A stretch of 40,275 bases of DNA, from positions 1-40,275 of the IMG/VR virus record IMGVR_UViG_3300021344_000003, one strand, 5' to 3'. This DNA is from a virus (lineage: Duplodnaviria > Caudoviricetes). The translations under genes and the position numbers were made by a program. Shown piece after piece: positions 1 to 38,122 of this stretch; positions within the stretch are counted from its first letter, which is position 1; the number at the start of each line of letters is the position of its first letter. A model generated the notes under the pieces. That model ran no database searches. It saw only the letters and a program-made list of their open reading frames with translations, and was not told the origin of the DNA.

Positions 1-172
1 AAACGACCGCAAGCTCCGTTTGATCCTTTAACGAAATTAATGTCGGCAATCGACGCGCTGGAAGCCGTGACGGTGGAAGCGGAAACAAGACCCGTAATGG
101 ACGCACTGGAAGCGTTCAAGGGCCCATCAATCGTAACGACCGTTGAGCCTGCGCCGTTATCGCCGACCGACA
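1..172. repeat. Left copy of 172-bp terminal direct repeat (circular overlap, 3 mismatches)
   Basis: 1..172 matches 40104..40275 except at 4/40107 (C/T), 66/40169 (C/A) and 128/40231 (C/T). Confidence 0.95.
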
Positions 173-2960
173 TTCCGCCGCCCATATTACTGTAGATGGA
201 AACGACGGAACCAGGCTGTTGCGCGGCCAGGCGCAGGTTACCAGTTCCGCCGGAAGTGAACATTAAAGCCTGCTGAGCCACGCCATCAGCATCGCCTACG
301 CGAAATTCCTGAGAATCTATCTGCCTATTCCATGTGCCGCTATGATAGGTTTCTAATTGGTTTGATTTGTCGCTGTTCGATATCGTCAAGCCATTGGCCG
401 GCGAAACGATGGCGTTTCGCTGAGCCGTCGTCATGCGCGGCGGAAGGAGTCCTTTGCTCGTTGAATCGACCTGAAAAGCCGCGCTAGGGTCTTGCGCGCC
501 GCTCGTATTGATTCCCACGAGGCCGTTCACGGTCGCAGTCGCGCCGTTCCATTGGAAATTGGAAGAACCCGATAATGTGTTAGATGATCCAGTCGCGGAA
601 TAGTAGGGAACGCTGTATTGATCGGCAAGATTGTTCTTACCGGACCTAAAGAGCGCTGGAGAGTTCGGGTTGATTGTGATGTAAGCGGTTGATCCGGCCT
701 GGAATGCCGCGTCAAAATCCGCCGCGCTGAATTTCAGTATCCCTGTCCCGGAAGTGATTTGAACGTCGTCGCGGTATACCGAAAGAGCCGATACGGTCGA
801 AATGCCGCAGCCCGCCACGTTATTGATCTGTTCAAGAGTGACGTTAGTCCCATAGCGTCCTTCCGTAAAAGGCGGCGACAGGTCGATGTGAAAAGAGATG
901 GATGATCCGGCGACGGCATAAATGAGCATCGTCGATCCGACCGTCGCGCCGACACCCCCAACGTTCGCGCCTGTAGGTTGATCGCTAAAACCGTAGGCGT
1001 TGGTCCATCGGACGTATCCGGATAAATTCTGATTATTGGATATTTCGTCGACAGTTTCATACAGAATGTTCGTGAGGCGGTAAAAACCGCTGGAAGATAC
1101 CGACGACAAGAAAACCGAAAGTGACTCTGTTTGATTGGTAAAACCCTGCGAAAATAGGAGCGTCGAGCAGCCGGTAGAAACGCCGACGCCGCCCGTTCCG
1201 CTGACGCTTCCCCAGGCCACCCCATTAGAGGACGTAGAAGAAGAAATCAAAACCGCGCCGTTGGCTCCAGGCGCAAGCGTCGAATAATTACCACTCGCAA
1301 GACCGGTAACTAGAGTTCCTTTTGCCGGACTCTGCGGGACCGTCACATTGACGGGGGTTCCTGTGCCTGTAAGCACGTTACTGGGCGTAAAGGTCGCCAG
1401 GACAGCGTCTGAGATCTCATCCGGTATGGCCGCAAAGAAAAATACGTCCACAAGATCAGGACCTCCGAACGTCGCGCTGTTGATGAAGAAACTCCCTGAA
1501 GTCGAAACGCGGCTTACCGGCGTCGGACTGCTTGAAACTTTCACGCCATCCTTCCAAATCGACAGCCCCGCCGGTCCCGCCCGGAAGGCCCAAGCTTCAA
1601 TGTTCGTCGTGGGCGTGTATCCGTTCCAGGTAAGCTCATCGGCGATATCCCTGAACCGCCAGTAAACGATCCCGTCTGAATCCGGCATATGAGCCTGGCA
1701 GTAAGCATGGGGTGCGACAAAAGAAATTCCAAAACCGCAGGAAGCCCGCAGCGTCGAATCCGTCTTGCGGCGCACCATCAAGATCGTTTGTGAAGAAGTC
1801 GCTAGAAACAGCGATGAATCGCCTAAGCCCCAGTTGTCGCCAGTATCATCAGCCAGCCCCGCCGTGTTATTCAGATAAGTCGTCCATCCGGGCGTGCCGA
1901 CATTAGTGACAGGGGATGAAGTGTAATGCTCCACTGGCGCGCCGGTTCCTTCCGTAAAAAGAACTGCTCTATTGGGAGTAAAACCTTGAGCGGTTAAATA
2001 GGTCAAATAAGCGGCTCTTGGATCAACCGTTGCTGATGCAGGTTGATTTAAATGAAAACTATGAATATAGACTGCCGGAGGCGCGGTAAAAGTAATCGTT
2101 CCCCCATTTCGCAGATAGCCCTGCCCCTCAAAATAAGTCGCGCCATCCGAAACAATGAAAATCGGGATATATTGAACCGTAAAAGTCACGTTTGAACCAT
2201 TCACCGTGCCGGAAGGAATCTCCATTTGATAGCCAGATGTCTTGCTTGAAATTTGGAGCGTCGTCCAAGTTGGGACTCCACCGGCGCCTGATGTAAATAG
2301 TTGGCCTGAAGTTCCTTGAGAACCGTTTAAGACGACGTTGCTTGAAATGACGAGGGACCCATTTAGGGTGGCTGATGAAGAAACAGTAAGAGAAGGAATA
2401 GAGACGTTATTAGGCAATGAGAGCGTTATAGATCCATTACCATTGTCCACATTGATTTGATTGGTAGTTCCTGAAATGGTTTGTAAATTGAATCCGCCTC
2501 CAACCGTTCTTCCGATAGGAATCTGACCGGATGACATATGGGTAAAGCGGACTTGATGAATATTGCCTGCATCAACGACGCTTAAGAGCGCATTTCCCGC
2601 ATCGAATGTTTGCGGATAAGTCGAACCAGGAATGTCTAAGTTAAAATAACCTAAAGTGCCGGAAGAAACGTAGAACGTCGAGCCGCTTTGAAGGGTAGAA
2701 GTATTCTGGATGTAACTAGTCGAACCGCCCGCCAGAGAACCACCCCCGCCGCCACCGGAAGTGGCTAAGCTGGCAGTTCCGTCGCCGTTATCGGTAAGAC
2801 TGCCGTTAGTGACTTTGAGTTTCCAGGGGAAAGTGGAAGGCCCGCCGTCCTCTTCAGCGATGTTTAAACGGCTCGATACGGGAGCCCAGGCGGGAGATGC
2901 GGCGGCCAGACACAATAAGGCGGCAAGAACTCGTTTTATTGGCCATCTCAGTCGTTCCAT
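1..2960 (-). CDS. 5' part of giant Ser/Thr/Gly-rich tail fibre/adhesin (joins 38132..40103 across the junction, ~1643 aa)
   Basis: Not in ORF track because it runs off the edge. ATG at 2960 gives MERLRWPIKRVLAALLCLAAASPAWAPVSSRL...; frame is the same as the 38132..40222 ORF through the terminal repeat. Contains fibre-type motifs EIPSGTVNGSNVTFT and STSKGLLPPRMTTAQRNAI and a possible LamG-like segment (GLSIWKDGVKV). Confidence 0.85.
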   Translation of the reverse strand, partial: MERLRWPIKRVLAALLCLAAASPAWAPVSSRLNIAEEDGGPSTFPWKLKVTNGSLTDNGDGTASLATSGGGGGGSLAGGSTSYIQNTSTLQSGSTFYVSSGTLGYFNLDIPGSTYPQTFDAGNALLSVVDAGNIHQVRFTHMSSGQIPIGRTVGGGFNLQTISGTTNQINVDNGNGSITLSLPNNVSIPSLTVSSSATLNGSLVISSNVVLNGSQGTSGQLFTSGAGGVPTWTTLQISSKTSGYQMEIPSGTVNGSNVTFTVQYIPIFIVSDGATYFEGQGYLRNGGTITFTAPPAVYIHSFHLNQPASATVDPRAAYLTYLTAQGFTPNRAVLFTEGTGAPVEHYTSSPVTNVGTPGWTTYLNNTAGLADDTGDNWGLGDSSLFLATSSQTILMVRRKTDSTLRASCGFGISFVAPHAYCQAHMPDSDGIVYWRFRDIADELTWNGYTPTTNIEAWAFRAGPAGLSIWKDGVKVSSSPTPVSRVSTSGSFFINSATFGGPDLVDVFFFAAIPDEISDAVLATFTPSNVLTGTGTPVNVTVPQSPAKGTLVTGLASGNYSTLAPGANGAVLISSSTSSNGVAWGSVSGTGGVGVSTGCSTLLFSQGFTNQTESLSVFLSSVSSSGFYRLTNILYETVDEISNNQNLSGYVRWTNAYGFSDQPTGANVGGVGATVGSTMLIYAVAGSSISFHIDLSPPFTEGRYGTNVTLEQINNVAGCGISTVSALSVYRDDVQITSGTGILKFSAADFDAAFQAGSTAYITINPNSPALFRSGKNNLADQYSVPYYSATGSSNTLSGSSNFQWNGATATVNGLVGINTSGAQDPSAAFQVDSTSKGLLPPRMTTAQRNAIVSPANGLTISNSDKSNQLETYHSGTWNRQIDSQEFRVGDADGVAQQALMFTSGGTGNLRLAAQQPGSVVSIYSNMGGGMSVGDNGAGSTVVTIDGPLNASSASITGLVSASTVTASSASIADINFVKGSNGACGR

Positions 2961-3226
2961 GTTAAATACCTGACATCCTGAGTCCCTGACGCCGCAATGC
3001 CGTAAATGGCCGTCTTGCGTGAAACGAACATTCCTTGCAACTCCAAGCTGGCTTGCGGAAGAACGGGAATCCCGTTGGAAGTCGTTACGGAAGCGTCGAA
3101 GCCGATATAGACGATGGCCGTTCCGTTGTTGTAGATCAAGACGTTTCGCCGCTGGGAGAGGTTGGCGATAATCGCCGTCCCACCAGCCGTGGAAACTACC
3201 GATACCGATCCATAATTATCAGCCAT
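2948..3226 (-). CDS. Small beta-rich virion protein
   Basis: 92 aa, RRNVLIYNNGTAIVYIG pattern typical of small phage beta-sandwich proteins; lies between the two fibre genes. Confidence 0.6.
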   Translation of the reverse strand: MADNYGSVSVVSTAGGTAIIANLSQRRNVLIYNNGTAIVYIGFDASVTTSNGIPVLPQASLELQGMFVSRKTAIYGIAASGTQDVRYLTWND

Positions 3227-3229
3227 AAT

Positions 3230-3952
3230 TTATTGGCACGCCGTCGTCCTTAAACTGGTCCTGGCCCATTTTGCCGTCACCGATTGAGTGCTGATGCAAA
3301 CAGCGTCCGTCACGCAATTAGAACAATAGTACTCCTGACCGACAGCCGTCGGAGTGCTGGCCGCTAATTGCGCTAGAGTTTTTGAAGCAAGCTGAAAATA
3401 TCCGCTTAATACGGCGGTCGAAATCGTGGCCATAGGCGCCGTTAATGGATAAAAAAAGCTCGCGCCGGAAGTATTATCAAAATTAGCTATGAGACTTTGC
3501 TCTCCATTATTAGTCGTAGAAGTTTTGATCGAAAATGCCCCGCCTAGTTCGGCGGAAACAACTTCAATCTGCGCCGAACCACGGTTCGGATTATTGTAAA
3601 TACCGGTTGTTGGGTCCATGTTTGTCGCAAAATAAAGCCTGGCTCCTCCAACGCCATTATTGATTGCAAGAAAGTTTTTTTCACCGTAAACCGCGTCAGT
3701 GATAGTTATGATTCTCGATAGTGCAGCCGTTGGATTCAGGACTAACTCGCTGAACGTGCCGCTAGAGGAAATTAAGGTAAACGAAGAGTCAATGATATCA
3801 AAAGCCGCTCTCAGCGTCGGTCCCCATCCCGTATCGCCGTCACCGGGCTTGGGAATCCCGGCGTTGGTCGTGTAGGTTGTCGCCGCGCTGCACTTGCGAA
3901 AGTTCAGCAGTAGCGGAATAAACAGCAGTACAAACAGCCATCGTTTTTTCAT
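3230..3952 (-). CDS. Short tail fibre/spike-like protein with N-terminal signal peptide
   Basis: MKKRWLFVLLFIPLLLNFRKCSA followed by TTYTTNAGIPKPGDGDTGWGPTLRAAFDIIDS, resembling a phage fibre N-terminal anchor; shares a ~105-aa domain with the giant fibre. Confidence 0.65.
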   Translation of the reverse strand: MKKRWLFVLLFIPLLLNFRKCSAATTYTTNAGIPKPGDGDTGWGPTLRAAFDIIDSSFTLISSSGTFSELVLNPTAALSRIITITDAVYGEKNFLAINNGVGGARLYFATNMDPTTGIYNNPNRGSAQIEVVSAELGGAFSIKTSTTNNGEQSLIANFDNTSGASFFYPLTAPMATISTAVLSGYFQLASKTLAQLAASTPTAVGQEYYCSNCVTDAVCISTQSVTAKWARTSLRTTACQ

Positions 3953-4690
3953 TTAGTTTTCAGCCTCATTCCCGCAAATGACTTTCTCAACGATATGCCC
4001 GACCATGATTTTCGGGTTGCAGATGACTTTTGCGCCAGCCATGTAGAGTTTGGAACACATCCGCATATCTTCGCTGTGCCCATAAAATGTAGCGTCACCC
4101 GTCGAATACTGGTTCGTGTAAGCGAAAAACGGCTGCACTAAATTCTTCAAGATTTCAGTCCTGAACAAAACGCATCCGAACCCGAAAACGTGGACCGGCT
4201 GAACTACATCGAAGTATTGAAGATGCTTGAAAAAAAGCGTCTGCTGCCCGTCCGGCGCGATGAATCCCTGCTCTTTCAGCGATCCGCGCTTCAGTTCAAT
4301 ATCTTTCGACCATGGGCTGTACTTCCCGACAACCGCCCGGTGCGGATAGGTTTTGGTAAAATAGAGCCCGGTACAAGCGGACGCATCGGGATATTCCTCC
4401 AAAGTCGCCAGCAAATCCAAAAGCGTCGTCTTTTTGAATACCTGGTCCATGTCGCAGCACATCAGGAAATCGGCTTGATATTTGTTGGAAAGAGCCAGGT
4501 TAAAAGCATCATTTCTATTCAAGTCCATAGGAAATTTGTCATGAATCAAGAATTTCAACTTTACCCCTTTTTCTGCCAGTTTTTCCTGCGTTTCCGGGCC
4601 AGTCATATCAAGGAACGACCGGAATACGCGGCTCGAAATCGAAGTGAAAGTGAGCGGCGCGTAAACAAGCAGGATTTTAGGTTCATCCAT
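3953..4690 (-). CDS. Glycosyltransferase, GT-A fold (GT2-like)
   Basis: RN motif (LNRNDAF), DxD motif (FLMCCDMDQ), GFGCVLF and SED motif near the C-terminus. Confidence 0.8.
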   Translation of the reverse strand: MDEPKILLVYAPLTFTSISSRVFRSFLDMTGPETQEKLAEKGVKLKFLIHDKFPMDLNRNDAFNLALSNKYQADFLMCCDMDQVFKKTTLLDLLATLEEYPDASACTGLYFTKTYPHRAVVGKYSPWSKDIELKRGSLKEQGFIAPDGQQTLFFKHLQYFDVVQPVHVFGFGCVLFRTEILKNLVQPFFAYTNQYSTGDATFYGHSEDMRMCSKLYMAGAKVICNPKIMVGHIVEKVICGNEAEN

Positions 4691-4702
4691 GATTCCAATA
4701 GT

Positions 4703-5797
4703 TCATTGATTTTGCGCCTCCTGCGTCTGGAATGAAGAATAAAGTCCCCTGGCCAAAGCTCGCTGTTGTTCTGGTCCAAGCTTCGGAAGAAGCTTTGATA
4801 ACGATCCCGAAAGAGCCGAAACAAAACCAGAAAAAGCGGGAGACTGCGCGGCAAATGCAGCGATAGCTTTTCCAAAATCACCGTGTCCGGCAAAAACCGC
4901 CGTAGAAAGATCAAACATGATTCCCAATTTTGAAGGCTGATCCGGGTTGCTCTTATTTACGCGGATCGGTTGAAGCATTTGAGATTTCAATTTGGCAGCA
5001 GCATATTGATCGCTCGCTTGCTTCATTTCGGGAGCCGTTTTGTCCAAAATATCATTCATCTCATTTCTAAATTGCGATAAAGTCCCCCGGCGCACCGCTT
5101 GTTTTGCCGTATCAGCAGGAAATACCGTATCCGCTGCCTGCCGTGCCATCAAAGCGTCTTTAGCCGATATTTCTTCGCCTTTAAGCCATGCCGTCATGAC
5201 ATCCGTCAATTTCTCAGTCGCCGCTCCATTCGGATTAGTCACCATCCTGGCCTGCTCTTCCGGCGTAAGAGCTTGGCCTAACAATTTGAACTTCTCGGCC
5301 CCGAACTTAGCCCCCGCTTCTTCAAGAGAAGAAGCTCCATAGGCAGGCAATCCTTTTTGGAACATACGGCGGAAATTCTGCGCCGGGCTGCCTGTTAAAC
5401 CTTCCGCGAATTTAGCGAAAGGAATTTTTGAAACCGCTTTCGCTGCGGCAGGCAAAGCGCGTCCCGCCGCTTCCATCATCGCGCCTTCTTTTAAAGATTC
5501 TGGCAAAGCCATTTCCGTTGGATTAAGCCCCATTATTCGATCTATCACATTAGCGGCTTCGTGGGCAGAAGGATAAGAAGCAATAGCCAAAGCAGGACCT
5601 GCCGCGGCCGAAGCAAGAGGCCCGGCGGGAGCCGCCATGGTCGCGCCCGCTAGCCCTGCTAATCCCATTGTGCCGCTTTCAATAACTGGATGAACCACAT
5701 ATTTTGAAACGCGAGAAGGCCAAGGATTGGGCTCATCAAGATATTCAATTCTTGATCCGGTTTCGGCTGGAGCTTCATCAAGATAAGTGATCGCCAT
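4703..5797 (-). CDS. Probable internal virion/DNA ejection protein
   Basis: 364 aa, Ala/Gly-rich helical, hydrophobic GLAGLAGATMAAPAGPLA stretch; downstream of the nozzle as in podoviruses. Confidence 0.5.
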   Translation of the reverse strand: MAITYLDEAPAETGSRIEYLDEPNPWPSRVSKYVVHPVIESGTMGLAGLAGATMAAPAGPLASAAAGPALAIASYPSAHEAANVIDRIMGLNPTEMALPESLKEGAMMEAAGRALPAAAKAVSKIPFAKFAEGLTGSPAQNFRRMFQKGLPAYGASSLEEAGAKFGAEKFKLLGQALTPEEQARMVTNPNGAATEKLTDVMTAWLKGEEISAKDALMARQAADTVFPADTAKQAVRRGTLSQFRNEMNDILDKTAPEMKQASDQYAAAKLKSQMLQPIRVNKSNPDQPSKLGIMFDLSTAVFAGHGDFGKAIAAFAAQSPAFSGFVSALSGSLSKLLPKLGPEQQRALARGLYSSFQTQEAQNQ

Positions 5798-6868
5798 TTA
5801 ATGAATGATCGCCTTTCGCCCAGCAATGATCGCCGGACCTTTATAGCCGGAAGCTTCCGCTTCTTGCGCCGAAGAAAAACTACGCTGCGCAGGAAAACCG
5901 CTGGGATTAGATACTAACGGATTTTGATTGGCCCCACGAACGGAAGCCGCCAAGGAAGGATTTATGTTTTGAAGTTGCTCTATGGCGGGTTTGCCAAATT
6001 GCGATGCCGTTTGAATCAGACCCTGATTGACTTCTTTCTCCCTTTGCAGGAGTCCTCCTAGTTCGCCGGTAAAGCCGGTAAAATCAACCGGAGCCGATTC
6101 GTTTGAAAGATATTCCGTAAAATTCCCGAATCTGCCGCGAAGTGTTTGGGGGATATAAAGGCTCAAAGCCTCATTCGTTAATACGCCCGTCGGATTGATG
6201 GACCGTCCGACAGCAGCCGCCAATTCCGTTCGCTGACGAATTGTGGCGCCTCCTCCCTGAGACTGAATCTGAGAAAGGATCTGCTGGGCCCGATTGATGT
6301 TGGCCAGCCTTCCGAACGAATCTTTTGCCGCACTCTGAACCATCCCGGCCTGGCTGTACCGCATCGCCGTATTAAGCACGGCGTTTTGGACGCCCGCTTG
6401 CCTGGCGCCGACCAGCCCAGCCAAATTCTCGTTGCGCGTTTCGCCGAGCCTGCGAGAAATGTCCATTTGTCCGACTTGCCGGGGAATCGGTTTGCCGCCG
6501 TATGATTTAATGACATCTTCGCTGACCCCGGTCGCTTTAGCTTGTTCAGGAAGAAGAAAATTCACTTCCGGTTGATTCGCTCTTTTGATAGACCCGAGTC
6601 CTGTCAATAATTTGGCGACAGGTTCAAATTGCTCCTGAGTTAAATTGCCGTACCCTTCCGTTCCTTGCGGCAAGTTGGGACCCAGCATTTGAAAAAGCGT
6701 CTGCTGCGCCAACTTACGCTGGCGCAGTTTATCGGCAATATCGGAACCGCCCAAATAGCCTTGCAAGGCCTGATTAGGAATATCCAGAGCCGCCGTAGCC
6801 GCCTTATAAGCCCCGGAAGGCTGGCTTAAAGCCTGCGCCAAAAGCTCAAAAAGACGCTCGTTAGCCAT
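5798..6868 (-). CDS. Probable internal virion/DNA ejection protein
   Basis: 356 aa, Gln/Ala/Gly-rich; abuts both neighbours; synteny. Confidence 0.5.
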   Translation of the reverse strand: MANERLFELLAQALSQPSGAYKAATAALDIPNQALQGYLGGSDIADKLRQRKLAQQTLFQMLGPNLPQGTEGYGNLTQEQFEPVAKLLTGLGSIKRANQPEVNFLLPEQAKATGVSEDVIKSYGGKPIPRQVGQMDISRRLGETRNENLAGLVGARQAGVQNAVLNTAMRYSQAGMVQSAAKDSFGRLANINRAQQILSQIQSQGGGATIRQRTELAAAVGRSINPTGVLTNEALSLYIPQTLRGRFGNFTEYLSNESAPVDFTGFTGELGGLLQREKEVNQGLIQTASQFGKPAIEQLQNINPSLAASVRGANQNPLVSNPSGFPAQRSFSSAQEAEASGYKGPAIIAGRKAIIH

Positions 6869-7320
6869 TAGACGTTCCCATAGACATTCGCAAGCGGATC
6901 TGTCGGTTGATGCAATGCGGAATATAAAGCATATCCTTGAGCACCCGCTTTGGCTCCGCCGCCAAGGCCAGCCAAAACCTGTTGAAGAATAGACGGGCTC
7001 ATGAGATCCCCAATTTGCCTTACCAATGCAAGATTGCGCTGGTGTTCCTGCTGCTTACGGACCTCGTCCAACGAAGCCCCGCCTAAAGCCCCAGCCAACG
7101 TGTCCTCAAGGCCCCTGGAAGCAATCCCGCCTGACCTGGCAAGCTCTTGGGGCGCATATTGGCCTTGAACGCGCCCGGAGGCCTTTGAGCTTGCAGTTTG
7201 ACGTGTTCCTATGCGTTGCAGGATGCCTTGCAAGTTGTTTTGGCCCTGCGTATTGATCTGCTGTAACGGATCACGCAACTGGTCGATAAGTTTTACGCCG
7301 CCCGCTCCAAGAAAAGCCAC
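6868..7320 (-). CDS. Probable small ejection/pilot protein
   Basis: 150 aa, Gly/Ala/Gln-rich; GTG start with GGAGG upstream. Confidence 0.45.
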   Translation of the reverse strand: MAFLGAGGVKLIDQLRDPLQQINTQGQNNLQGILQRIGTRQTASSKASGRVQGQYAPQELARSGGIASRGLEDTLAGALGGASLDEVRKQQEHQRNLALVRQIGDLMSPSILQQVLAGLGGGAKAGAQGYALYSALHQPTDPLANVYGNV

Positions 7321-7330
7321 TTGATGCCTC

Positions 7331-7738
7331 CTATAATAATGCCGCTATCCCGGCCCCTATGCCGGCAACATTGCCGGCTACTCCCAAAGCGCCTAACGCT
7401 TCTTGAAGTGGACTAGCCTTCTGAATCTCAGCTAAAAGACGAGCCAATTCAGCTTGTCTTTGAGCGTCCTGCTGGGACGCGTAATCCTGCAAAGGAACCT
7501 GGCCTAATTCGTATGCCAAAGCGTTCTGGACTTGCCCTAAGGCGCCCGTTTCTCCGGTATTAATGTCCCCGGCCTCATAATTGTAAACGCCAGAACCCAA
7601 ACGACCGCCATGTGCCGCTTGAGCAACCGACTGGCGGCGTTTGCGGGCGTAGAGATTTTCGATATTGAGGTTCGCCGTTTCAGCTTGACCTCGAAGAGCA
7701 TCTTCCAGCGTGCCGGTTCCTGAATCAAGAAAGGACAT
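7331..7738 (-). CDS. Probable small ejection/pilot protein
   Basis: 135 aa with glycine-zipper-like hydrophobic C-terminus (LGALGVAGNVAGIGAGIAALL); AAAGGGG RBS. Confidence 0.5.
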   Translation of the reverse strand: MSFLDSGTGTLEDALRGQAETANLNIENLYARKRRQSVAQAAHGGRLGSGVYNYEAGDINTGETGALGQVQNALAYELGQVPLQDYASQQDAQRQAELARLLAEIQKASPLQEALGALGVAGNVAGIGAGIAALL

Positions 7739-7767
7739 TTATTCCCCTTTCGGCTAAACTCAATAAA

Positions 7768-8007
7768 CTAGCTAAACTGCACATATTTGATCAACCCTCC
7801 CGAATTCGTATATAGCCGGTTCAATGTCTGGTCATAAACGAACGTCAGTTCCGGCAAATCTTTCAAGAGCGGCGGGCTCGTCAAGCTCGGACGAACGTGA
7901 TTTTCCACAAGCCACTTAAAAATTCCAGAAATATCCCCGAAGGTTGCTGGTTCATTAGCGTACGCGCCACTTCTCAGTGTCGGAGGTTTCGGGATAGCGG
8001 TTGTCAT
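7768..8007 (-). CDS. Hypothetical virion-associated protein
   Basis: 79 aa, ATGA-coupled to the nozzle gene. Confidence 0.6.
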   Translation of the reverse strand: MTTAIPKPPTLRSGAYANEPATFGDISGIFKWLVENHVRPSLTSPPLLKDLPELTFVYDQTLNRLYTNSGGLIKYVQFS

Positions 8008-10718
8008 GATCCCAAAGTTCCACGTTGTAAAGTTTGCCTGAAATAGAGCCGCAATCCATCCACTGAAAAAGGTTTGTCCACCGCATTGCTTCGGACGCGG
8101 AACCGCACTTTTTCTCCCATGAAATTGATATTGAATTTCTTCGTAAAACTCATTGATGCGCCGTCATCTTGCGTCAAATCGACGCTGACTTCCTGGTAAG
8201 TCTCCCCGCCATCCGTTGACCAACCAAGATCGAGGTCATAAGGCCCCATCCTGTCGCAAGTAATCAAAAGCTCCCGGCCTTTCATTTGAAGTTCAGAATT
8301 AGAGAAATCCCGCGTCTCATAAAACGAATCCATCGCTTCTCCGGCCTTAGAATAGCTGCTCTCAAGTTCAAAAAGCGAACCGTCAACGCTAGACCCGCCT
8401 ACAAAAACGTTAATAAATCGGCAAAACGATAACAAAGACCAGTCTTTTTGATGCCAAGGATTCTTAGCTGTCGATTTTCCTAACACGACAACGATATCGT
8501 TCTCCGACGCTCCAAGGGTAGCCGCCGCCAGCCAATAGCGATTTAACCATACAAAAGAAGCGACGTTTTGAAGGACAGCTGCGCCCGATGTGGTTGATAG
8601 CACCCAATTTACTGTAAACGAATCGACAAACGGGGCCCTGGCGGCGTCAGACGTAGAAAGTTCGATCCTGACTTGGAAGAAGATGTTGGCTATGTCCGTG
8701 TTCGGGACCGCTCCTGGGACTATGACTGTCCAACTAGCGGAACTAAGCCCTGGACTAGTTGATGCCGCCCGGAAATAATACAGAATCGTCTGGCCAAGCT
8801 CATTGCGTTCCGATGTGAAGCCACCCCATTGCAGAATGTTTCCGCCGGTATTGTGAATTGCTGAAAGGTACGTCCCGCCGACATACACTTTGTCGATAAC
8901 GGGCGTAGCGAGGCCCGTAGAACTGAACAGGTTCACGCCCCATCGCAGATATTGCCTAAGAGTCGAGCCGATAAGGGCGTTATTGGCGACATCGACTTCA
9001 ATACCCCATGTAATACCATCACTAGACGATTGCGTGAAAAACTGGTAAGCTTCGCCGTTCGCCGCAATAATAGCCGTCAGATGGCCGAAAGAGGCCGGAG
9101 CCGCGCCATAATCAATCGGAGCCGACAAAAACGTTCCATCCGGTTCAAATCCGCCCCTGTATACTTCCATCTCGCCAAGCGTTGCTTGACCGGCGCTCAT
9201 GGAAACAAAAAGACGAACCTGGATACATCGCACGGTAGCAAACGGAATGTCCCAATCCGCTGGAACGGCGCTTTGCGGAGGAAAAAACTGAAAAGCGTTG
9301 ACCCAAGACCCATTCGTTGCACCGGGAGCTTGGTAGGCGCCTACATTCACTTCAATTTCACATAAAGAGAAACCAGCGTTCGCCAAAAAGTTCTTGAGAA
9401 CAACTTTACCGACAGGCGTTTCGGAACCCATATCAATTATCCAAACGGCATTATTTTGTGTATTAAAATTAGACCCGAATCCGACAACCGGAGATGTTGC
9501 GCCATCATTTATGGAAGAATTGACCCCAATAACAGAAAGACCGCCGGATTGATCTAGAAAAGCATTCTTACCAAGAGATATAAGAGCCCCTGGCTGTCCT
9601 ATTTCCACTAAAGCCAACTGCAAATTGCCGGGATTGTCATTAGCCGTCGTATCGTCATGCGTCCCGGAATTAAAATCCGCCTGCGTGTCATCCGCCGGAA
9701 TGAGCGTCAGTTTATCGTCACCAGTCGAAAGGTTATTGGGAACCGTTCCCGCCGCCAAATCAGCCGATTCAGTGACGTTCCAGAACGCATTGTTTAAGAG
9801 CGGCTGTTGGAGATTCCTGAAAGCAAACACGCCGGACGCGGGATTGGATGGATCAATCGGGTCAGAAATGCGCTGGGCTTCTTCGCCGTCAAAGACATAG
9901 AAACCGTCTACGCCGATGAAATGGATCAAGTTATCTTTGATCTGAATGGATTCCTGAAACCGCGTGCCTGTTGAAGCCCGCGTCTTGACGCGGGTGTACG
10001 TGTACTCGTCATATCCGACGATCCGGTAAATCGAATACTGTTTAGAGCAATAGAGGTAGCCGCGGTACAAGAAAATACCCGTTCCTTGATCGGCGTCGCC
10101 TTCCGAAATCTGGATCTCATTATCGGTCGGCCATGCCGCTATATTATCCGGCGCGATCTCCGTTCCCGCCGCGTCCGTCAAAGCCGTGAACCGCGCCGCT
10201 GAAGGAGCGTCCGAGATGCCGTAAAGCCACACGCGCTCGTCGTGATAAGCAATATACTTTCCCGCAGGAACGTCGGGAGTCCCGCCGGAACCGCCCAATC
10301 TCACAAGAGTTGTCCCGTCCCAGGTCATCACGTCATCGGAACCGTTCGTCAGCCACAACTTGTCGCGGATCACCATGCCGCGCAACTGAAAGAAACCCGA
10401 TAGGCCCGTCACGATCTGCGTGTAATTCACAAAATCGGTCGTATGCCAGACCGTCACGTTATCGGACAAAACAAGCTGGCTTGATCCGTCGGAAGTCTTG
10501 AAAAAATCAACGAGCAGGGTCGTCGGATTGCCGGAAGGATTCTGGCCTAAAAATCGGTAGCCGTGAGCCGTGACGACCGACCCTGGTTTCTCGTCCACCC
10601 AAACGTTCTGGTGATTCGGAGAATGGCCGGCAGGCAGTTTCGTCGGCGACGCCGCCGTGTTCAGCGTGCCCCACTCTTCTATCGCAAACTCCTTAGCATC
10701 TTCTAAAACGGCAGTCAT
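8004..10718 (-). CDS. Tail nozzle/tubular protein B (P22 gp10/T7 gp12-like beta-propeller) with internal insertion
   Basis: 904 aa; N-terminal GTLNT...SPNHQNV, propeller-like blades (LWLTNGSDDVMTWDG, IHFIGVDGFYVFDG), C-terminal YETRDF...GEKVRFRV; follows the adaptor gene. Confidence 0.7.
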   Translation of the reverse strand: MTAVLEDAKEFAIEEWGTLNTAASPTKLPAGHSPNHQNVWVDEKPGSVVTAHGYRFLGQNPSGNPTTLLVDFFKTSDGSSQLVLSDNVTVWHTTDFVNYTQIVTGLSGFFQLRGMVIRDKLWLTNGSDDVMTWDGTTLVRLGGSGGTPDVPAGKYIAYHDERVWLYGISDAPSAARFTALTDAAGTEIAPDNIAAWPTDNEIQISEGDADQGTGIFLYRGYLYCSKQYSIYRIVGYDEYTYTRVKTRASTGTRFQESIQIKDNLIHFIGVDGFYVFDGEEAQRISDPIDPSNPASGVFAFRNLQQPLLNNAFWNVTESADLAAGTVPNNLSTGDDKLTLIPADDTQADFNSGTHDDTTANDNPGNLQLALVEIGQPGALISLGKNAFLDQSGGLSVIGVNSSINDGATSPVVGFGSNFNTQNNAVWIIDMGSETPVGKVVLKNFLANAGFSLCEIEVNVGAYQAPGATNGSWVNAFQFFPPQSAVPADWDIPFATVRCIQVRLFVSMSAGQATLGEMEVYRGGFEPDGTFLSAPIDYGAAPASFGHLTAIIAANGEAYQFFTQSSSDGITWGIEVDVANNALIGSTLRQYLRWGVNLFSSTGLATPVIDKVYVGGTYLSAIHNTGGNILQWGGFTSERNELGQTILYYFRAASTSPGLSSASWTVIVPGAVPNTDIANIFFQVRIELSTSDAARAPFVDSFTVNWVLSTTSGAAVLQNVASFVWLNRYWLAAATLGASENDIVVVLGKSTAKNPWHQKDWSLLSFCRFINVFVGGSSVDGSLFELESSYSKAGEAMDSFYETRDFSNSELQMKGRELLITCDRMGPYDLDLGWSTDGGETYQEVSVDLTQDDGASMSFTKKFNINFMGEKVRFRVRSNAVDKPFSVDGLRLYFRQTLQRGTLGS

Positions 10719-10867
10719 TCTTCAATCTCCGTCCATGTCGTTATGCCGGAAGAAACAATCAGCGAACTGCCGCCTCCGAACGGCCCTTCGCCGAACCCGC
10801 CTTCCCCAAAACCCACGCCGGGAATGAGTATCACTCCGGCGTCGCCGATATCAATGAAATCAGACAT
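10715..10867 (-). CDS. 50-aa Gly/Phe-rich protein (below ORF-track cutoff)
   Basis: MSDFIDIGDAGVILIPGVGFGEGGFGEGPFGGGSSLIVSSGITTWTEIEE; fills the adaptor-nozzle gap, ATGA overlap, GGAGG RBS. Confidence 0.7.
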   Translation of the reverse strand: MSDFIDIGDAGVILIPGVGFGEGGFGEGPFGGGSSLIVSSGITTWTEIEE

Positions 10868-10869
10868 TA

Positions 10870-11508
10870 CTAATACCTCCCCGCCCAGCGGAAACGCATC
10901 AAGTCGTCAGCGAATTTCTGTACGTGCGAAGTCAGGCGTTTTTTCTGGTTTTCATAAAGAGCCAAATTCACCTGCGCCCTTTTATCGTTGCCCATCTTGT
11001 GCTCTAAAAGAAACGCCGCGTAGAACGGAAGGCAGTCATGGAACGCGACATGCAGGTCCGGCGCCGTCACGTCATCAGTCAAATCGGGCGGGACTTTAAT
11101 GTATTGGATCTGTATCACTTCAGAATTAGCGACGCGGTCAGCAGAAGGTTTTGGATAAAGCCCGATCTTGACGTTGTCGGCTTTGTAGGCGTAAAGCGGA
11201 AGGCCGGACGTGGCGTTCTGCCAGTCGGAACGAATATGCGCGAGGTCGGCGCGATCTACGATAATCAGCTGCTGATTGTCGTAGAAAACATCCGAAAGAG
11301 AAATGAAGTTTTCAGGAAGCGTGTAAGTCGATTGTTCCGCGACGGGCGTCGCTTGCGCCAGTTGCAATGGCCATTCGAGATCGGTTCCCAAATAACGAAT
11401 GGCCTGATTTAAATCGCCGTAAATCTGCGCGTCGGTGAAATGGCTGTTAGCCGAATCGGTTTCGTCGATCAGGGCCCTGGTCTGCGCCAAAAGGGCGGGC
11501 CTGAGCAT
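10870..11508 (-). CDS. Head-tail adaptor/tail tubular protein A
   Basis: Likely start MLRPALLAQTRALIDE at 11508; motifs YTLPENF, IGLYPKPS, FHDCLPFYAA typical of podoviral adaptors. Confidence 0.75.
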   Translation of the reverse strand: MLRPALLAQTRALIDETDSANSHFTDAQIYGDLNQAIRYLGTDLEWPLQLAQATPVAEQSTYTLPENFISLSDVFYDNQQLIIVDRADLAHIRSDWQNATSGLPLYAYKADNVKIGLYPKPSADRVANSEVIQIQYIKVPPDLTDDVTAPDLHVAFHDCLPFYAAFLLEHKMGNDKRAQVNLALYENQKKRLTSHVQKFADDLMRFRWAGRY

Positions 11509-11509
11509 A

Positions 11510-11917
11510 TCACAATTTCTCCGCTTCCCTCTTAAACCACACGATAAAATTGCCGAGCTTCTCGCGCAATTTAAGCGTGTCCTGGTGCAGATCCTCAATC
11601 TTGGTGCGCTCAGTCTCGAAACCGTTTTTGTCCTGCTTAAAATTAATCAGAAGCTTCGCGAAATCGGCTTTATCGGCTTCCAATTTAGCCGATGCCTCGC
11701 TTATTTTGAGGCCTTCAAGCCGGGCCGCTTCGCGCTTCTTATCAAGTTCCTGCTGGCCCAAGGCGAGAGCCTGCTCGATATCTTTTTTCGTTTGGTCGTT
11801 CTTGCGTTTTAAGTTCTCCGATTCCATCTGTAAATGCGCCGTGCGGGCTTCCCATGCCGAGAGCTCCCCGCCCAATTCCTTAACGCCTTTGATCGTCGTA
11901 GCCGATTTCGAGTCCAT
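11510..11917 (-). CDS. Coiled-coil hypothetical protein
   Basis: 135 aa, Lys/Glu-rich heptads; coupled to neighbours. Confidence 0.65.
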   Translation of the reverse strand: MDSKSATTIKGVKELGGELSAWEARTAHLQMESENLKRKNDQTKKDIEQALALGQQELDKKREAARLEGLKISEASAKLEADKADFAKLLINFKQDKNGFETERTKIEDLHQDTLKLREKLGNFIVWFKREAEKL

Positions 11918-12189
11918 TATGATCCCTTCGGGAAAAAGTAAGTTTTTCCCAGCCCTTCTTTTGAATAGTGAAACATCCGTTTCTCTTTCGGATGCCAGCG
12001 CCTGTCTCCGACATCATTCAAATGCGCCACCGTCGCTTTCGGGTTATAAGGATTGTTTCCGGTTTCCTTGAAATACGGAAACGTTCCCGGCTCCAATTCC
12101 CGGCAATGGCGGCAAAGCCACGCTTCTTCGCCCAAATCAAAAAACAGGCTCGAACAAGGCTTCAAACAAACCGCGCATTGCTGGATCAT
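11917..12189 (-). CDS. Small Cys-containing (zinc-finger-like) protein; start uncertain
   Basis: CAVC...CRHC pairs; start at MIQQ (12189) avoids overlap with the upstream gene. Confidence 0.5.
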   Translation of the reverse strand: MIQQCAVCLKPCSSLFFDLGEEAWLCRHCRELEPGTFPYFKETGNNPYNPKATVAHLNDVGDRRWHPKEKRMFHYSKEGLGKTYFFPKGS

Positions 12190-12265
12190 GCGAGGAATTC
12201 CCGGCGGAGGAAAGAGCTTCGACGGATCAAGTAAAAACCCCCTCTTTCCGCCGGGAAATAATTTC

Positions 12266-12673
12266 CTAGTATCCAGCCGACAAACGGCCCGGCTCATAAA
12301 CAATCAAAGCGGCGTCATTGGCCGTAGACAAAACGGCCATGCCTCCCTGACTGAACTGAAGCGGCGGATCGTACAAACACATCGTCGTTACGCTCGCCGA
12401 ACCCGCCATGCATCGCGTTTTTAAAACGCTCGACTGAACGCCGGAGGAGATCCCCGCCGCCGTGGTCGTGTCAAACAACGCGACGAAATCGCCGGTCGCG
12501 CCCGTTGACATCACGACGCCGTAAATCACAACGTCCGCGTTCAAGGCAACCGTCGAAACCGCCGTGGTGTAGTTGATGGCCAGAGATTGTTTTGCTCCCC
12601 TGGCCGCCGATGCCGCATGAGACGTTCCGACCCAAGCTAGACACAAGAGAAGAACAGCAAGTTTTGTTTTCAT
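12266..12673 (-). CDS. Capsid decoration-like beta protein with signal peptide
   Basis: Immediately after the capsid gene; MKTKLAVLLLCLAWVGTSHA then a beta-rich body (IYGVVMSTG...VALFD...YDPPLQFSQG). Confidence 0.6.
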   Translation of the reverse strand: MKTKLAVLLLCLAWVGTSHAASAARGAKQSLAINYTTAVSTVALNADVVIYGVVMSTGATGDFVALFDTTTAAGISSGVQSSVLKTRCMAGSASVTTMCLYDPPLQFSQGGMAVLSTANDAALIVYEPGRLSAGY

Positions 12674-12685
12674 GTCATTCCCCCC

Positions 12686-13552
12686 TTATGCCGCGCTCGT
12701 GACCCGTACCGCGTGATTGTCACGAACGACTTTCACGCCGTACAAGGCTGAGCCGTGGTATTTGGTCGCGTACTGCACTTTAGCGAATTTCCCCATCTCG
12801 AAGTCTTTCTGCATGATAACGGCAAAAGCTTCCCGGTGAAACAGCACGTTGTCGCGCTTGGAAGCCGTGGTCGTAACGCGGCTGGAAACTTCTACAGGAG
12901 TGCCGTAGAGCCCAACCACGCGCCCGTTATCCACCTGCACGCCCCTCGTAAAGCCCGTGACGTTCGCCAGAGTGAACTTGTCGTTACCCAAAAGATCCGC
13001 GTGCGCCAATGGCGCGATGATCCAAACGCGGTCATCTTTCGGCACTTCCAAGTCATCTAGGAGCGTCTGAGCGCCCCGGATTTTCGGGTCACTGAACGCC
13101 CCGCCCGTATCGTCAATGTTGGTCGTTAAAGTCGCCACCAGAGCCAGAACGTCGTCATCCTGTTTCTGAGCGACGGCTTTCCCGAACGCTTCCGAGAACT
13201 CCGATTCCCAGTTCAAAATCGACTGGTAATCGACGATATCCACCAAGTTCGCTGACACGTTCTTCCATTTATCGACGACAATCGATACCGGCGTCGGAGA
13301 AACCTCCGTGTCGGTGAAGGAGCCGTCGGTCGTGGAAATGTCCGATGTCGCTAAGGACGGGAAGATTTGTAGCGTCACCCGGTCCCCGGCCTGCTTGATT
13401 GAACCCGTCACGTTGGCGTCGCCTTCCATGGCGTTCAAACAGTGGCCCCATGCTTTCTGCGCGGCGTATCTGGCTTTTAAAGCCTTGACCCGTAACCAGT
13501 TCGGCAGAGTCGTCGATACGCCGGTTGTGTCTAATCCCGTTTCGTTAGCCAT
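12686..13552 (-). CDS. Major capsid protein (HK97 fold, P22-coat-like)
   Basis: 288 aa after the scaffold; motifs GDRVTL, IVVDKWK, AVAQKQDDDVL, VPKDDRVWII, VLFHREAF, ALYGVKVVR. Confidence 0.85.
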   Translation of the reverse strand: MANETGLDTTGVSTTLPNWLRVKALKARYAAQKAWGHCLNAMEGDANVTGSIKQAGDRVTLQIFPSLATSDISTTDGSFTDTEVSPTPVSIVVDKWKNVSANLVDIVDYQSILNWESEFSEAFGKAVAQKQDDDVLALVATLTTNIDDTGGAFSDPKIRGAQTLLDDLEVPKDDRVWIIAPLAHADLLGNDKFTLANVTGFTRGVQVDNGRVVGLYGTPVEVSSRVTTTASKRDNVLFHREAFAVIMQKDFEMGKFAKVQYATKYHGSALYGVKVVRDNHAVRVTSAA

Positions 13553-13570
13553 TGAGTCCCGCTTTTAATT

Positions 13571-14428
13571 TTATTTCTTCACCCGTTTTTCCGCATAGGC
13601 TCTCATGAACTCCGATTCCAGTTCCTTGAACTTCTTGTTTTGATCCGGCGTCAGATGCCGCACGTCGCCGATTTTTTTTAGCTCGGCCTCCATTTCGGGT
13701 TCCGTCCATATTCTCGGCCCGCTTGCTGAAGCCGATGTTCCAGCGACCGATGCCGCCTTGTTTTTCAGGACGGATTTATCCGAAACGCCGCGTGACTTTT
13801 CCCATTTATACAGGACATACTCGGCCTGTTCCATGGGCGCTTCGATGCGGCCCGCGAGCGGGTCAGATGCAAGAATTTCCCGGATTTCCTGGATATCCTC
13901 CTCCGTGATGCCTTTTTGGGAACGAATGAATTTGGCGGCTTCCAACGCTTCCTGCTTCAGAGACGCCGCTTGCGCCCGTTCTTCTTCCGTCTGGCGAATT
14001 TCTTTTAAGAGTTCCGGTCGGAACCCTTCCAGCTCATTACGAAGAATCTCGCGCAGCGTGTCTTCTGGAGCGTCGTAAAACGTCCGCGAAGGTTTGCGGT
14101 TCTGATTGGGGTCGAATAACTTCTGAAGTTCCGCGAGCTGCTGTTTCATTGTGCCGACTTCGTTGTTCCAATAGCCGTCGCGTTCCCTCAACTGCTGCCT
14201 GAGTTCATAGATCGTTTCTGCTTTTGATTTGAACCTCGGCCTTCCCGGGTCAGTCCCGTTTTCCTTGCCGCCCTCGGAGGAAGATCGCTCCCCTCCGGCG
14301 ATGCTCTCTTTTCCTTGCGGATTTTCAGGCGCGACTGTCCCTGAACCGTTTGAGCTTTCGGTCCCTGTTTTTGCGGTCGCTTCCCCGCCAGATGTCTGGA
14401 GGGCGGATGTGGCTAGTTCGTCAACCAT
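13571..14428 (-). CDS. Capsid scaffolding protein
   Basis: 285 aa, disordered N-terminus, charged coiled coil, C-terminal AYAEKRVKK; directly upstream of the capsid gene. Confidence 0.7.
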   Translation of the reverse strand: MVDELATSALQTSGGEATAKTGTESSNGSGTVAPENPQGKESIAGGERSSSEGGKENGTDPGRPRFKSKAETIYELRQQLRERDGYWNNEVGTMKQQLAELQKLFDPNQNRKPSRTFYDAPEDTLREILRNELEGFRPELLKEIRQTEEERAQAASLKQEALEAAKFIRSQKGITEEDIQEIREILASDPLAGRIEAPMEQAEYVLYKWEKSRGVSDKSVLKNKAASVAGTSASASGPRIWTEPEMEAELKKIGDVRHLTPDQNKKFKELESEFMRAYAEKRVKK

Positions 14429-14481
14429 TGTTTCGTCCTTCTCTTATCGCCGTGAAACTAGGCCGGGCGATAACGGCCAAA

Positions 14482-14859
14482 TTAATAGCATTCATATTCG
14501 ATAAAAACGTTCGCCGTAGACGAATTCGTGTAAGCCAAAGAATTCGTGTTCGTGGAAGCGACCACCGTATCGAAGTTCAAGCATCCGAACTGCGTGGCGT
14601 CAATTGACGCCGCTTGAACGGGCGTATTCGTCGATAAAAACACTTTCAGCGTGGAAGCCGCAGCCGTCGGGCTGGAAATGCAGACGGAATGAAGAATGGC
14701 CCGGTGTTTAGAACAAAGAGATTGGTTTGAATCCGCCGTCTGCGTGAAAGAGCTCCGCCAGACCTCATAGGCTTGCGCCCGAGACGCGCTAGAGAGCAGG
14801 AGTAACGAGACAAGAGGCAATCGCCTCAAAAGTATTTTCTTCATTGCGGCCCACCTCAT
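14482..14859 (-). CDS. Small beta-rich protein with signal peptide (start 14859 or 14844)
   Basis: MKKILLRRLPLVSLLLLSSASRAQA|YEV; mature part has 4 Cys and loosely resembles 12266..12673. Confidence 0.65.
   Translation of the reverse strand: MRWAAMKKILLRRLPLVSLLLLSSASRAQAYEVWRSSFTQTADSNQSLCSKHRAILHSVCISSPTAAASTLKVFLSTNTPVQAASIDATQFGCLNFDTVVASTNTNSLAYTNSSTANVFIEYECY
14814..14827. promoter_or_regulatory. GAGGC-N4-GCCTC palindromic motif, copy 1 (reverse orientation)
   Basis: GAGGCAATCGCCTC is the reverse complement of GAGGCGATTGCCTC at 19615, 36970 and 37171. Confidence 0.5.
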
Positions 14860-15161
14860 TGCGGTTCACCCCGCGCTTCCGACAAGAGCTTTTCGATGAT
14901 TTCTGAAGGAGCGTTCGATGGATCGGCGCCTTCTTCTTTCAAGCGTTCGATCTCGATATCCAATCGCACCATCAGTCGCTTGGCGCCTTTCTCCTGGCCC
15001 GCCCAATATCGCCACGCCGATTCCTGGCCTCTTGCAGCCGATAGGTCGCGCTTCGTTTCGATCTCGGAGATATCTTCCAGCCACAACTCCTGCAATCGCT
15101 TGTATGCGGGGTGGCTCTTAAGTGCGGTCAATAAAACCAAATCCTTTGCTTTTTCGGTCAT
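14856..15161 (-). CDS. Small helical protein downstream of portal
   Basis: 101 aa, ATGA-coupled on both sides; position typical of podoviral head modules. Confidence 0.65.
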   Translation of the reverse strand: MTEKAKDLVLLTALKSHPAYKRLQELWLEDISEIETKRDLSAARGQESAWRYWAGQEKGAKRLMVRLDIEIERLKEEGADPSNAPSEIIEKLLSEARGEPQ

Positions 15162-24356: not shown

Positions 24357-24410
24357 AAAATGGCAAATTTGCCAAAATGGCAAATTTGCCAAAATGGCAA
24401 ATTTGCCAAA
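24357..24410. repeat. Tandem repeat 3 x 17 bp ATGGCAAATTTGCCAAA
   Basis: Perfect units at 24360, 24377, 24394; each holds the palindrome TGGCAAATTTGCCA; solo inverted copy at 23400..23416. Confidence 0.95.
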
Positions 24411-24575: not shown

Positions 24576-24601
24576 CGCGGAATCAATACATGATGTAGTA
24601 T
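24572..24601 (+). promoter_or_regulatory. Candidate sigma70 promoter
   Basis: TTGACG-18-TAGTAT; ATG begins 7 nt after the -10 (leaderless geometry). Confidence 0.55.
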
Positions 24602-24607
24602 GGCGGC

Positions 24608-37231: not shown

Positions 37232-37546
37232 TTAAGGCGTCGGCGGATTGACCTTATCGAGTTCCGCCTGCACGTCCGCGTTGTCGCCTTTAAGAGCGGT
37301 CGTGATGTTCGTCACTTCGTCAAAGAGCGGCTGTAAGTCCGCCGAAGGAGCAGGGACCGCCGCAATTAACTTCTCTACCGCCGCAATCAAGTTCTTGGTT
37401 TCTTCCAACTGCTCCGCTACGGCGTCTTTTAAATCTTTCACCGCCGCCATCGTCTCTTCAAGATTCTTAGCCATTTGTCGTACCCCCTTTATTAGTTTGT
37501 TCAGCAGTTTCTCATGGACTTCAAACTTCGTCCTAGTCCTGCCCAT
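37232..37546 (-). CDS. Coiled-coil hypothetical protein (alternative start MAKNLEE)
   Basis: Ala/Glu/Lys helical protein ending NPPTP. Confidence 0.65.
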   Translation of the reverse strand: MGRTRTKFEVHEKLLNKLIKGVRQMAKNLEETMAAVKDLKDAVAEQLEETKNLIAAVEKLIAAVPAPSADLQPLFDEVTNITTALKGDNADVQAELDKVNPPTP

Positions 37547-37874
37547 CTTCTTCCTTCTTGATCTTCTTAACGGTCACCGTTATTTTCTTGTCGCCTAAAA
37601 CCATCTCAACCAAACCATCGGTTTTCTCCGTATCGAAATCATTGGCCTTGAGGTCGGCGGTTCCTAGAAGTGACGCGAGGTCCGATACTTCGTTAGCCGT
37701 CATCGTCACCATATCGTCAACAATGTCATGCTTCAATCTTACTTTCCCAATATTTGCCATCGTCTCCTCCGTTTCATCGCTGTAAACTTTTGATTCAGGC
37801 TCGTCATTATACACGGTTGCCTGAACTGGAAGCATCGCCAAACCCATCAAGCCTATAAGGATTTGTAGTCTCAT
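37533..37874 (-). CDS. Acidic protein with signal peptide
   Basis: MRLQILIGLMGLAMLPVQA|TVY. Confidence 0.65.
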   Translation of the reverse strand: MRLQILIGLMGLAMLPVQATVYNDEPESKVYSDETEETMANIGKVRLKHDIVDDMVTMTANEVSDLASLLGTADLKANDFDTEKTDGLVEMVLGDKKITVTVKKIKKEEDGQD

Positions 37875-37876
37875 GG

Positions 37877-38122
37877 CTAAGGCAAAAGTTGGAACTTTGT
37901 CTGAAGCGACGCCTTCAAAGCGTCATATTGCGCCAGGAGCGACGCCTGCTGGCCGGAAGTGACGTTGACTAAGATCGGAGTCCCCTCCGGGCCAACATCG
38001 ATCTGCCATCCTTTACCCGCCATCACCTGCACCTTCTGCATGAAAATCCGCAGGTTGTTCAATATCTCCATCGCCTCCTGGATCGTGTTTATGGCTTGTG
38101 GAATCTGCCCGGCTGAAACCAT
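37877..38122 (-). CDS. Hypothetical protein downstream of the fibre (possible chaperone)
   Basis: AGGAG RBS; 81 aa. Confidence 0.65.
   Translation of the reverse strand: MVSAGQIPQAINTIQEAMEILNNLRIFMQKVQVMAGKGWQIDVGPEGTPILVNVTSGQQASLLAQYDALKASLQTKFQLLP

Follow-up and report, generated by a model that had tools for sequence, protein, structure and literature searches.

Predicted export leaders on the fibres and jelly-roll proteins of an uncultured podovirus suggest a periplasmic route for outer virion parts

Four late genes open with predicted Sec leaders

The late module of an uncultured tailed virus (Duplodnaviria; Caudoviricetes; IMG/VR record IMGVR_UViG_3300021344_000003) was analysed over the whole 40,275-nucleotide stretch, referred to here as the window. 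Four of its minus-strand genes, named by the position at which they start, encode proteins that begin with a predicted Sec leader. The giant fibre (2960) crosses the junction of the circular genome and has about 1,643 amino acids (aa) in all; its N-terminal part (3..2960) consists of the leader (approximately 2883-2960), a conserved domain some 45 aa long and a Gly linker, and its C-terminal part (38132..40103) carries G-I-S-T-G-type repeats. The short tail fibre (3952; 3230..3952) has a leader at approximately 3884-3952, an anchor at approximately 3780-3883 and four C-terminal Cys in the mature protein. Two further genes encode single jelly-roll proteins, one directly after the capsid gene (12673; 12266..12673, leader approximately 12614-12673) and one between the portal and scaffold genes (14844; 14482..14844, leader approximately 14770-14844), the latter with four Cys. 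Tailed-phage virions assemble in the cytoplasm and their fibres normally lack signal peptides, whereas disulfides form in the periplasm.

Leaders were called by a home-made signal-peptide rule: a basic n-region, an uncharged hydrophobic 8-mer and small residues at −3 and −1. The rule was written after the leaders had been seen and was left untuned afterwards. In the late region of the window it selected 2960, 3952, 12673 and 14844, together with 37874 if that gene is read from the ATG at this position, and no others. The head and tail core genes (capsid, portal, adaptor and nozzle-like) were leaderless by the rule. None of 633 internal-Met windows of core proteins passed, and 362 of 3,450 shuffled leaders did (10.5%). 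Because the core is leaderless and the outer parts bear leaders, the outer parts are likely exported. In the early region, three lipoprotein-like genes on the plus strand (28556-28936, 32156-32350 and 34534-34689), whose leaders end in Gly-Cys, also pass the rule; they would fit a host with two membranes but do not prove one.

The start codons were then considered gene by gene. Gene 3952 has no other in-frame start within its first 45 codons, the sole alternative start of 2960 is a TTG inside the leader, and a strong ribosome-binding site lies ahead of the 12673 start. For the gene between portal and scaffold, a start at 14844 agrees with the homologues better than one at 14859. The fifth candidate (37533..37874, minus strand) is leader-like only from 37874. 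This ATG has no ribosome-binding site, while the ATG at 37760, 3′ of the hydrophobic stretch, has a strong one and is the likelier start; no homologue of the gene was found. For these reasons we set 37874 aside, and its leader may be an artefact of start choice. An earlier note, made from the letters of this DNA, had listed five late genes with leaders; four of them hold and 37874 is doubtful. That note also raised the possibility that true starts lie past the hydrophobic segments, which is excluded for 3952 and likely for 37874.

Leaders are retained in relatives by character rather than by sequence

The window was compared with up to 14 related records, two of which (G003 and G004) are near-identical in their head genes. 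Orthologues in the related genomes passed the rule in 17/17 cases for 14844, 15/15 for 12673, 9/10 for the short fibre and 3/3 for the giant fibre. The single short-fibre miss, in G002, was an effect of the search range, as this fibre passes when read elsewhere. Across 18 other late-gene groups, by comparison, just 2 of 204 members passed. Homologues retrieved from databases gave the same result for both jelly rolls (32/32 for 14844 and 37/37 for 12673). The leaders were less conserved than the mature parts (0.29 versus 0.42 and 0.33 versus 0.41); over large homologue sets they thus keep their character and not their sequence. The proposal that homologues keep the leaders was therefore borne out in full for the jelly rolls, and in 127 of 145 homologues of the short-fibre anchor described below.

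Homologues of the first domain of the giant fibre passed in 10 of 14 cases. When the failing sequences were inspected by eye, one had a leader from a later Met, two seemed to start inside a leader and one (P0235) was apparently leaderless. The earlier remark that Pro follows the best AxA site of the giant fibre is correct, and the same Ala/Pro junction is present in the homologue P0222. A second site, Ala-Ala-Ala/Ser, lies after residue 21, and most homologues have an ordinary residue at +1.

A small protein encoded after the fibre (37877..38122, minus strand) is leaderless in the window. Its homologue in one relative (G007) bears a leader that ends, in register, where the window protein starts, which indicates that leaders can be gained or lost.

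The short fibre carries a podophage fibre anchor directly behind its leader

The earlier note had described the 3952 leader as directly preceding a fibre-anchor-like motif. This proved accurate: the anchor starts at the predicted cut and matches the N-terminus of gp19 of the Sinorhizobium phage phiM5 (MF074189). A profile built from nine anchor sequences matched gp19 from residue 2 (30 bits) and gp112 of the cultured phage Tunturi_4 (PP885687) from residue 3 (41.6 bits). Both proteins are leaderless, and gp19 is also Cys-free. The phiM5 N-terminus was matched by ten records, and the starts were inspected for phiM5 gp19 and Tunturi_4 gp112. According to the MF074189 record, gp19 is a ‘putative host-binding tail fiber’ and was detected in the particle proteome. 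These matches identify the 3952 anchor as the N-terminus of a podophage fibre.

The same profile matched 1,139 clusters, with homologues of 90-1,980 aa. Among the best 150, the anchor lay near the N-terminus in 145, and 127 of these passed the rule at the annotated start. Another three passed when read from a Met further on, and the remaining 15, inspected by eye, looked like leaders or like starts called inside a leader. When the shorter homologues among the best 150 were scanned (92 sequences), 19 had PHROG tail fibre, spike or collar domains, one had a virion-structural family, one had only families of unknown function and 71 had none. Variable modules sit behind the anchor in the homologues, and the C-terminus of the window protein has no family match. 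The anchor profile gave no match among solved structures and only weak matches among PHROGs, and Pfam assigned no family to 23 of 26 fibre-region proteins of the relatives.

A six-frame search of the stretches retrieved for this clade recovered ten distinct anchor copies (the G003 copy merged with that of G004), one per genome and each behind a leader. In the window, 3952 is the only recognisable tail-anchored fibre. In the Escherichia phage SU10, a Kuravirus, fibre N-termini attach to the adaptor (PMC9509320); removal of the leader from 3952 would therefore free the binding end. The window encodes an SU10-type adaptor (10870..11508, minus strand; PF24175, 62.5 bits against a cut-off of 27), which is leaderless and is likely the fibre dock. 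A complex prediction with two adaptor copies and three anchor copies scored 0.02 against a mark of 0.32, which is uninformative either way. Taken together, the anchored fibre probably associates with the particle.

Directly upstream of the fibre gene lies a leaderless GT2-like glycosyltransferase gene (3953..4690, minus strand), which was found in 6 of the 12 related records searched. A leaderless, Cys-free protein of 92 aa (2948..3226, minus strand; phrog_30212, unknown function) is encoded immediately upstream of the giant fibre, and G002 has the same gene order. A leaderless gene of 110-112 aa occurs in the fibre block of four relatives. These small leaderless genes could encode cytoplasmic docking bases. 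The 92-aa protein did not match the RcGTA head-spike base Rcc01079 in searches of solved-structure sequences, and it gave no alignment with phiM5 gp13. The giant fibre itself had no match in Pfam and none at E below 0.7 among solved-structure sequences; language-model features of its last 414 residues point to a resemblance with phage proteins that bear C1q (0.93), which we take as a lead only.

Cysteines of leader-bearing proteins are gained and lost in pairs

A recount gave 4, 2 and 4 mature Cys for 3952, 12673 and the gene then read from 14859, as first reported. In the 14844 family (n = 35), 32 members have both Cys55 and Cys88 and three have neither, and Cys44 and Cys119 are almost invariant. 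In the 12673 family (n = 39), 12 members have both Cys88 and Cys99 and 27 have neither. Cysteines are thus gained and lost in pairs. Mature leader-bearing proteins had an even Cys count in 42 cases, an odd count in seven and none in five, compared with 32 even, 52 odd and 89 zero among core proteins. This parity points to an oxidising compartment.

Two jelly-roll proteins flank the scaffold and capsid genes

The predicted structures of 14844 and 12673 are single jelly rolls (predicted local distance difference test scores, 86 and 83), and the two proteins are probable paralogues by profile alignment (hhalign, 85%). In 13 and 15 genomes, their genes flank those for scaffold and capsid. Relatives carry one to three tandem copies of 14844, with three at L004 1679-2685 and two at L006 8378-9079. 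The best solved folds had Z-scores of 7.7 for 14844 and 8.1 for 12673, with nucleoplasmins first or tied, and with the KHP40 cement protein, XepA and the HFTV1 turret also present. The match of 14844 to 7dou (Z 7.7) covered 91 aligned residues at a root-mean-square deviation of 2.8. As a class, cement and decoration jelly rolls such as those of KHP40, Pam1 and the HFTV1 turret were tied with nucleoplasmins and CUB domains among the solved matches. The nearest predicted viral folds include many proteins of 86-100 aa from uncultured tailed phages, which, given their length, are presumably leaderless. From fold and gene position, the two jelly rolls would be capsid decorations or spikes.

A Ser/Thr motif is enriched in the leader-bearing proteins of the window

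The leader-bearing proteins of the window contain 23 [I/V]-S-[S/T] motifs against 7.7 expected, a number that none of 200 shuffles reached, while its core proteins contain five against 3.7 expected. The excess spans 3-2960, 3230-3952, 12266-12673, 14482-14844 and 38132-40103. The pattern was chosen after trimer lists had been inspected. A wider form of the motif occurred 1,030 times in the 127 anchor homologues against 681 expected. The motif may be a tag for modification by the host. The Bacteroidota O-glycosylation motif D-[ST]-[AILVMT] showed no excess in either set (6 versus 8.7 expected in the window, 191 versus 248 in the anchor homologues), nor were N-glycosylation sequons enriched in the window proteins or the anchor homologues. 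The Ser/Thr-rich style may resemble that of Elusimicrobiota proteins.

The genome is a closed circle with a podovirus plan

The ends of the window (1-172 and 40104-40275) overlap by 172 bp with three mismatches, and a metagenome contig of 27,135 bp, from a soil-metagenome run that may itself have yielded this DNA, runs across the junction; the genome is therefore a circle of 40,103 bp. The IMG/VR record is rated 53% complete despite the closed circle. As judged from the encoded proteins, the genome plan is that of a podovirus with an SU10-type adaptor. On the minus strand lie the terminase large subunit (16927..18336), the portal (15158..16930; phrog_332, with PF23899 at 29.9 bits, just below the cut-off of 30), a probable scaffold assigned from position (13571..14428), the major capsid protein (12686..13552) and a nozzle-like tail protein (8004..10718; a weak match to phrog_578, head closure Hc3). 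The portal, scaffold, capsid and nozzle-like proteins are leaderless. Four leaderless, Cys-free genes at 4703..7738 (minus strand) have no family match and, from their position, are probable ejection or core proteins. A small Cys-rich, zinc-finger-like gene without a leader (11917-12189) lies between the adaptor gene and 12673 and is found in 15 genomes.

A search for tyrosine integrases found none in seven genomes (the window and six relatives, the latter possibly incomplete; control, 14/14). The closest cultured relatives by capsid are at most 28% identical. A metagenome scan found 11 related loci, all on contigs of at most 40 kb, and viral scans gave no match for any of three queries, namely the adaptor, the N-terminus of the giant fibre and 37874. 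A genome scan returned one 13.5-kb contig of a close relative (L009 1-13547) with phage genes throughout, filed in an archaeal metagenome-assembled genome, a placement that is likely mis-binning.

A probable lysis cassette at 35378-36969 has no family match, and different lysins take its place in relatives (DUF5675 in G002). Short tandem repeats, visible in the translations, occur in early open reading frames at 24394-24696 and 24998-25207 (plus strand), with an 18-bp unit repeated about three times and a 9-bp unit about six times. The late region of G002 (L024 5820-6326) encodes a leaderless cohesin-domain protein (PF00963, above cut-off).

Discussion

From the leaders, their conservation, the division between core and outer parts, the Cys pairing, the fold and the anchor homology, all of which were observed, we infer translocation and cleavage of the outer parts, formation of their disulfides, and the docking step with its timing, as follows. 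Particles made of capsid, portal, adaptor and nozzle would be built in the cytoplasm, while the fibres and jelly rolls would be exported by the host Sec system and cut by signal peptidase. The exported parts would form disulfides as they fold in the periplasm, and would attach to finished particles once lysis opens the inner membrane. Cleavage of the fibre leader would free the same N-terminus with which leaderless podophage fibres start. To judge by their sequences, the fibres and jelly rolls are very probably exported. For the whole route, from Sec export through periplasmic disulfide folding to docking at lysis, we put the probability at roughly 0.6.

The proposal that the phage exports its appendages and folds them oxidatively is well supported by leaders kept in character, N-termini in register with leaderless homologues and paired Cys. 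The earlier note left a choice between attachment to the particle and display on the host cell. Attachment fits better, because the 3952 anchor matches a podophage fibre N-terminus and is the sole copy per genome, and because no tyrosine integrase was found in the seven genomes; docking itself would be the presumed step.

Several observations weigh against this interpretation. The leader calls rest on a home-made, post-hoc rule that 10.5% of shuffled leaders pass, and the homologues share ancestry, so that leader counts are not independent events. The best cleavage site of the giant fibre is followed by Pro, and the small post-fibre protein has a leader in G007 but not in the window. Cys counts are less tidy in some sets: the 127 anchor homologues, truncated proteins included, have 78 even, 43 odd and six zero counts, the nine mature Cys of the giant fibre make an odd count, and mature Cys are missing altogether from 15 of 37 homologues of 12673. 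The window fibres match no named fibre family. The solved matches of the jelly rolls, with Z-scores of at most 8.1 and led by nucleoplasmins, indicate a common fold and not a function. Finally, virion disulfides are known in phage Milano, with no mention of export in the passages covered (PMC10491603).

Part of this evidence could also fit exported proteins that remain in the periplasm or on the surface of the infected cell, where they would serve as receptor decoys or block superinfection, and that never become particle parts. Export signals normally denote an envelope role, three early genes are lipoprotein-like, and jelly-roll folds also occur outside virions. On this reading, however, a podovirus with an adaptor and a nozzle would be left without any tail fibre that can be recognised. 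The conserved anchor belongs to a type of N-terminus that binds particles, the genes hold fixed positions among head and tail genes, and no tyrosine integrase was found in the seven genomes searched; we therefore consider this explanation unlikely.

Alternatively, some leaders might remain uncut and tether fibres to the inner membrane, so that particles collect them at lysis or leave on membrane fragments. Pro at +1 hinders signal peptidase I, and the Ala/Pro junction of the giant fibre and of P0222 would suit such tethering. Against this, most giant-fibre homologues have an ordinary residue at that position, the Ala-Ala-Ala/Ser site is available, and every family conserves small-x-small sites, which lie in register with the leaderless homologues. 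Tethering is accordingly a somewhat more remote prospect than retention by the cell.

A mixed fate, in which the fibres join the particle and the two jelly rolls act in the periplasm as non-virion proteins, draws on the jelly rolls' lack of an anchor motif and on fold searches in which no solved decoration protein stands out. The fixed position of these genes around scaffold and capsid and the small tailed-phage proteins among the nearest predicted folds speak for virion parts instead, and we rate this mixture as improbable. That the leaders might act as pro-peptides in the cytoplasm, or be artefacts of start calling, is scarcely credible: 37874 does have a better start downstream, but none is available for 3952, the leader is kept in more than 200 homologues, and the parity of the Cys counts speaks for an oxidising compartment.

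The usual view is that tailed phages complete their particles in the cytoplasm, before lysis. With a split route such as the one proposed here, the export, disulfide and possibly glycosylation systems of the host would become part of phage assembly, fibres could use the folds of secreted adhesins, and the failure of such fibres in cytoplasmic expression or their escape from annotation would be explained. A more far-reaching idea can be entertained tentatively, although we think it doubtful: a large lineage of lytic podophages may be unable to complete an infectious particle in the cytoplasm, with all host-recognition fibres and decorations exported, disulfide-folded, modified at [I/V]-S-[S/T] by a periplasmic system of the host and added to naked particles at lysis as the last assembly step. 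What makes the proposal worth pursuing is the clean split between core and outer parts, a single anchor that ties an exported fibre to one found in a particle proteome, and cultured Tunturi phages that permit a direct test.

Comparison with known systems

In filamentous phages, the virion proteins pIII and pVIII have signal peptides, and the disulfides of pIII form in the periplasm. Their virion, however, is extruded without lysis and assembled at the membrane, and it is not of the head-tail type.

Bdellovibrio MAT proteins are trimeric fibres with a signal peptide, disulfides and TNF-like tips, and have a beta-rich domain, 130 aa long and conserved, right after the signal peptide (PMC10769870). 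The tip of the MAT protein Bd2133 was among the jelly-roll fold matches (Z 5.8-6.8); MATs, however, are bacterial adhesins and not phage parts.

In disulfide-crosslinked virions such as that of Agrobacterium phage Milano, the crosslinks join the virion core (PMC10491603, PMC13576161), and neither paper, in the passages covered, mentions signal peptides or the periplasm. In the window, by contrast, Cys pairing is concentrated in the leader-bearing proteins.

SU10 shares the PF24175 adaptor (above cut-off) and a portal family just under the cut-off with the window, but its genome is 77 kb, compared with 40 kb here (the 40,103-bp circle). The terms ‘signal peptide’ and ‘disulfide’ do not occur in the SU10 paper (PMC9509320). 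The phiM5 podovirus shares the N-terminal anchor motif of 3952; its gp19 differs in starting at Met without a leader, in having no Cys and in a remainder that does not match 3952.

Exported virion parts are not mentioned in the passages covered of four further papers (PMC3556154, PMC3517404, PMC10386132 and PMC12014285). In the literature searched, with supplements and most subscription papers lying outside the search, no tailed phage was described as exporting its tail fibres or decorations. ‘Signal peptide’ does not occur in the paper describing the Tunturi phages (PMC11924767), whose supplements, also outside the search, could hold such annotations.

The closest parallel in culture is the podovirus Tunturi_2 (PP885685), a Tunturiibacter phage whose host is a soil member of the Acidobacteriota. 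Its gp12, gp13, gp14, gp16 and gp17 pass the rule, with 20, 10, 20, 1 and 34 mature Cys, respectively, whereas its portal, capsid and core genes fail; in Tunturi_4, gp113 and gp114 bear leaders. These leader-bearing, Cys-rich, tail-type genes lie at L054 9802-22744 in Tunturi_2 and L051 15446-19119 in Tunturi_4. BLASTP of the late proteins of the window against 24 Tunturi_2 proteins gave no match, and Tunturi_2 gp13 aligned weakly with the anchor (hhalign probability, 29%). Unlike the window proteins, the Tunturi leader-bearing proteins have no excess of [I/V]-S-[S/T] (21 versus 15 expected; leaderless virion proteins, 6 versus 13.3). Because cultured Tunturi_2 shows the same division between leader-bearing outer parts and leaderless core, the export route is testable. 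For the outer parts of tailed phages, it would bring together known kinds of parts by a route that is new if docking is shown.

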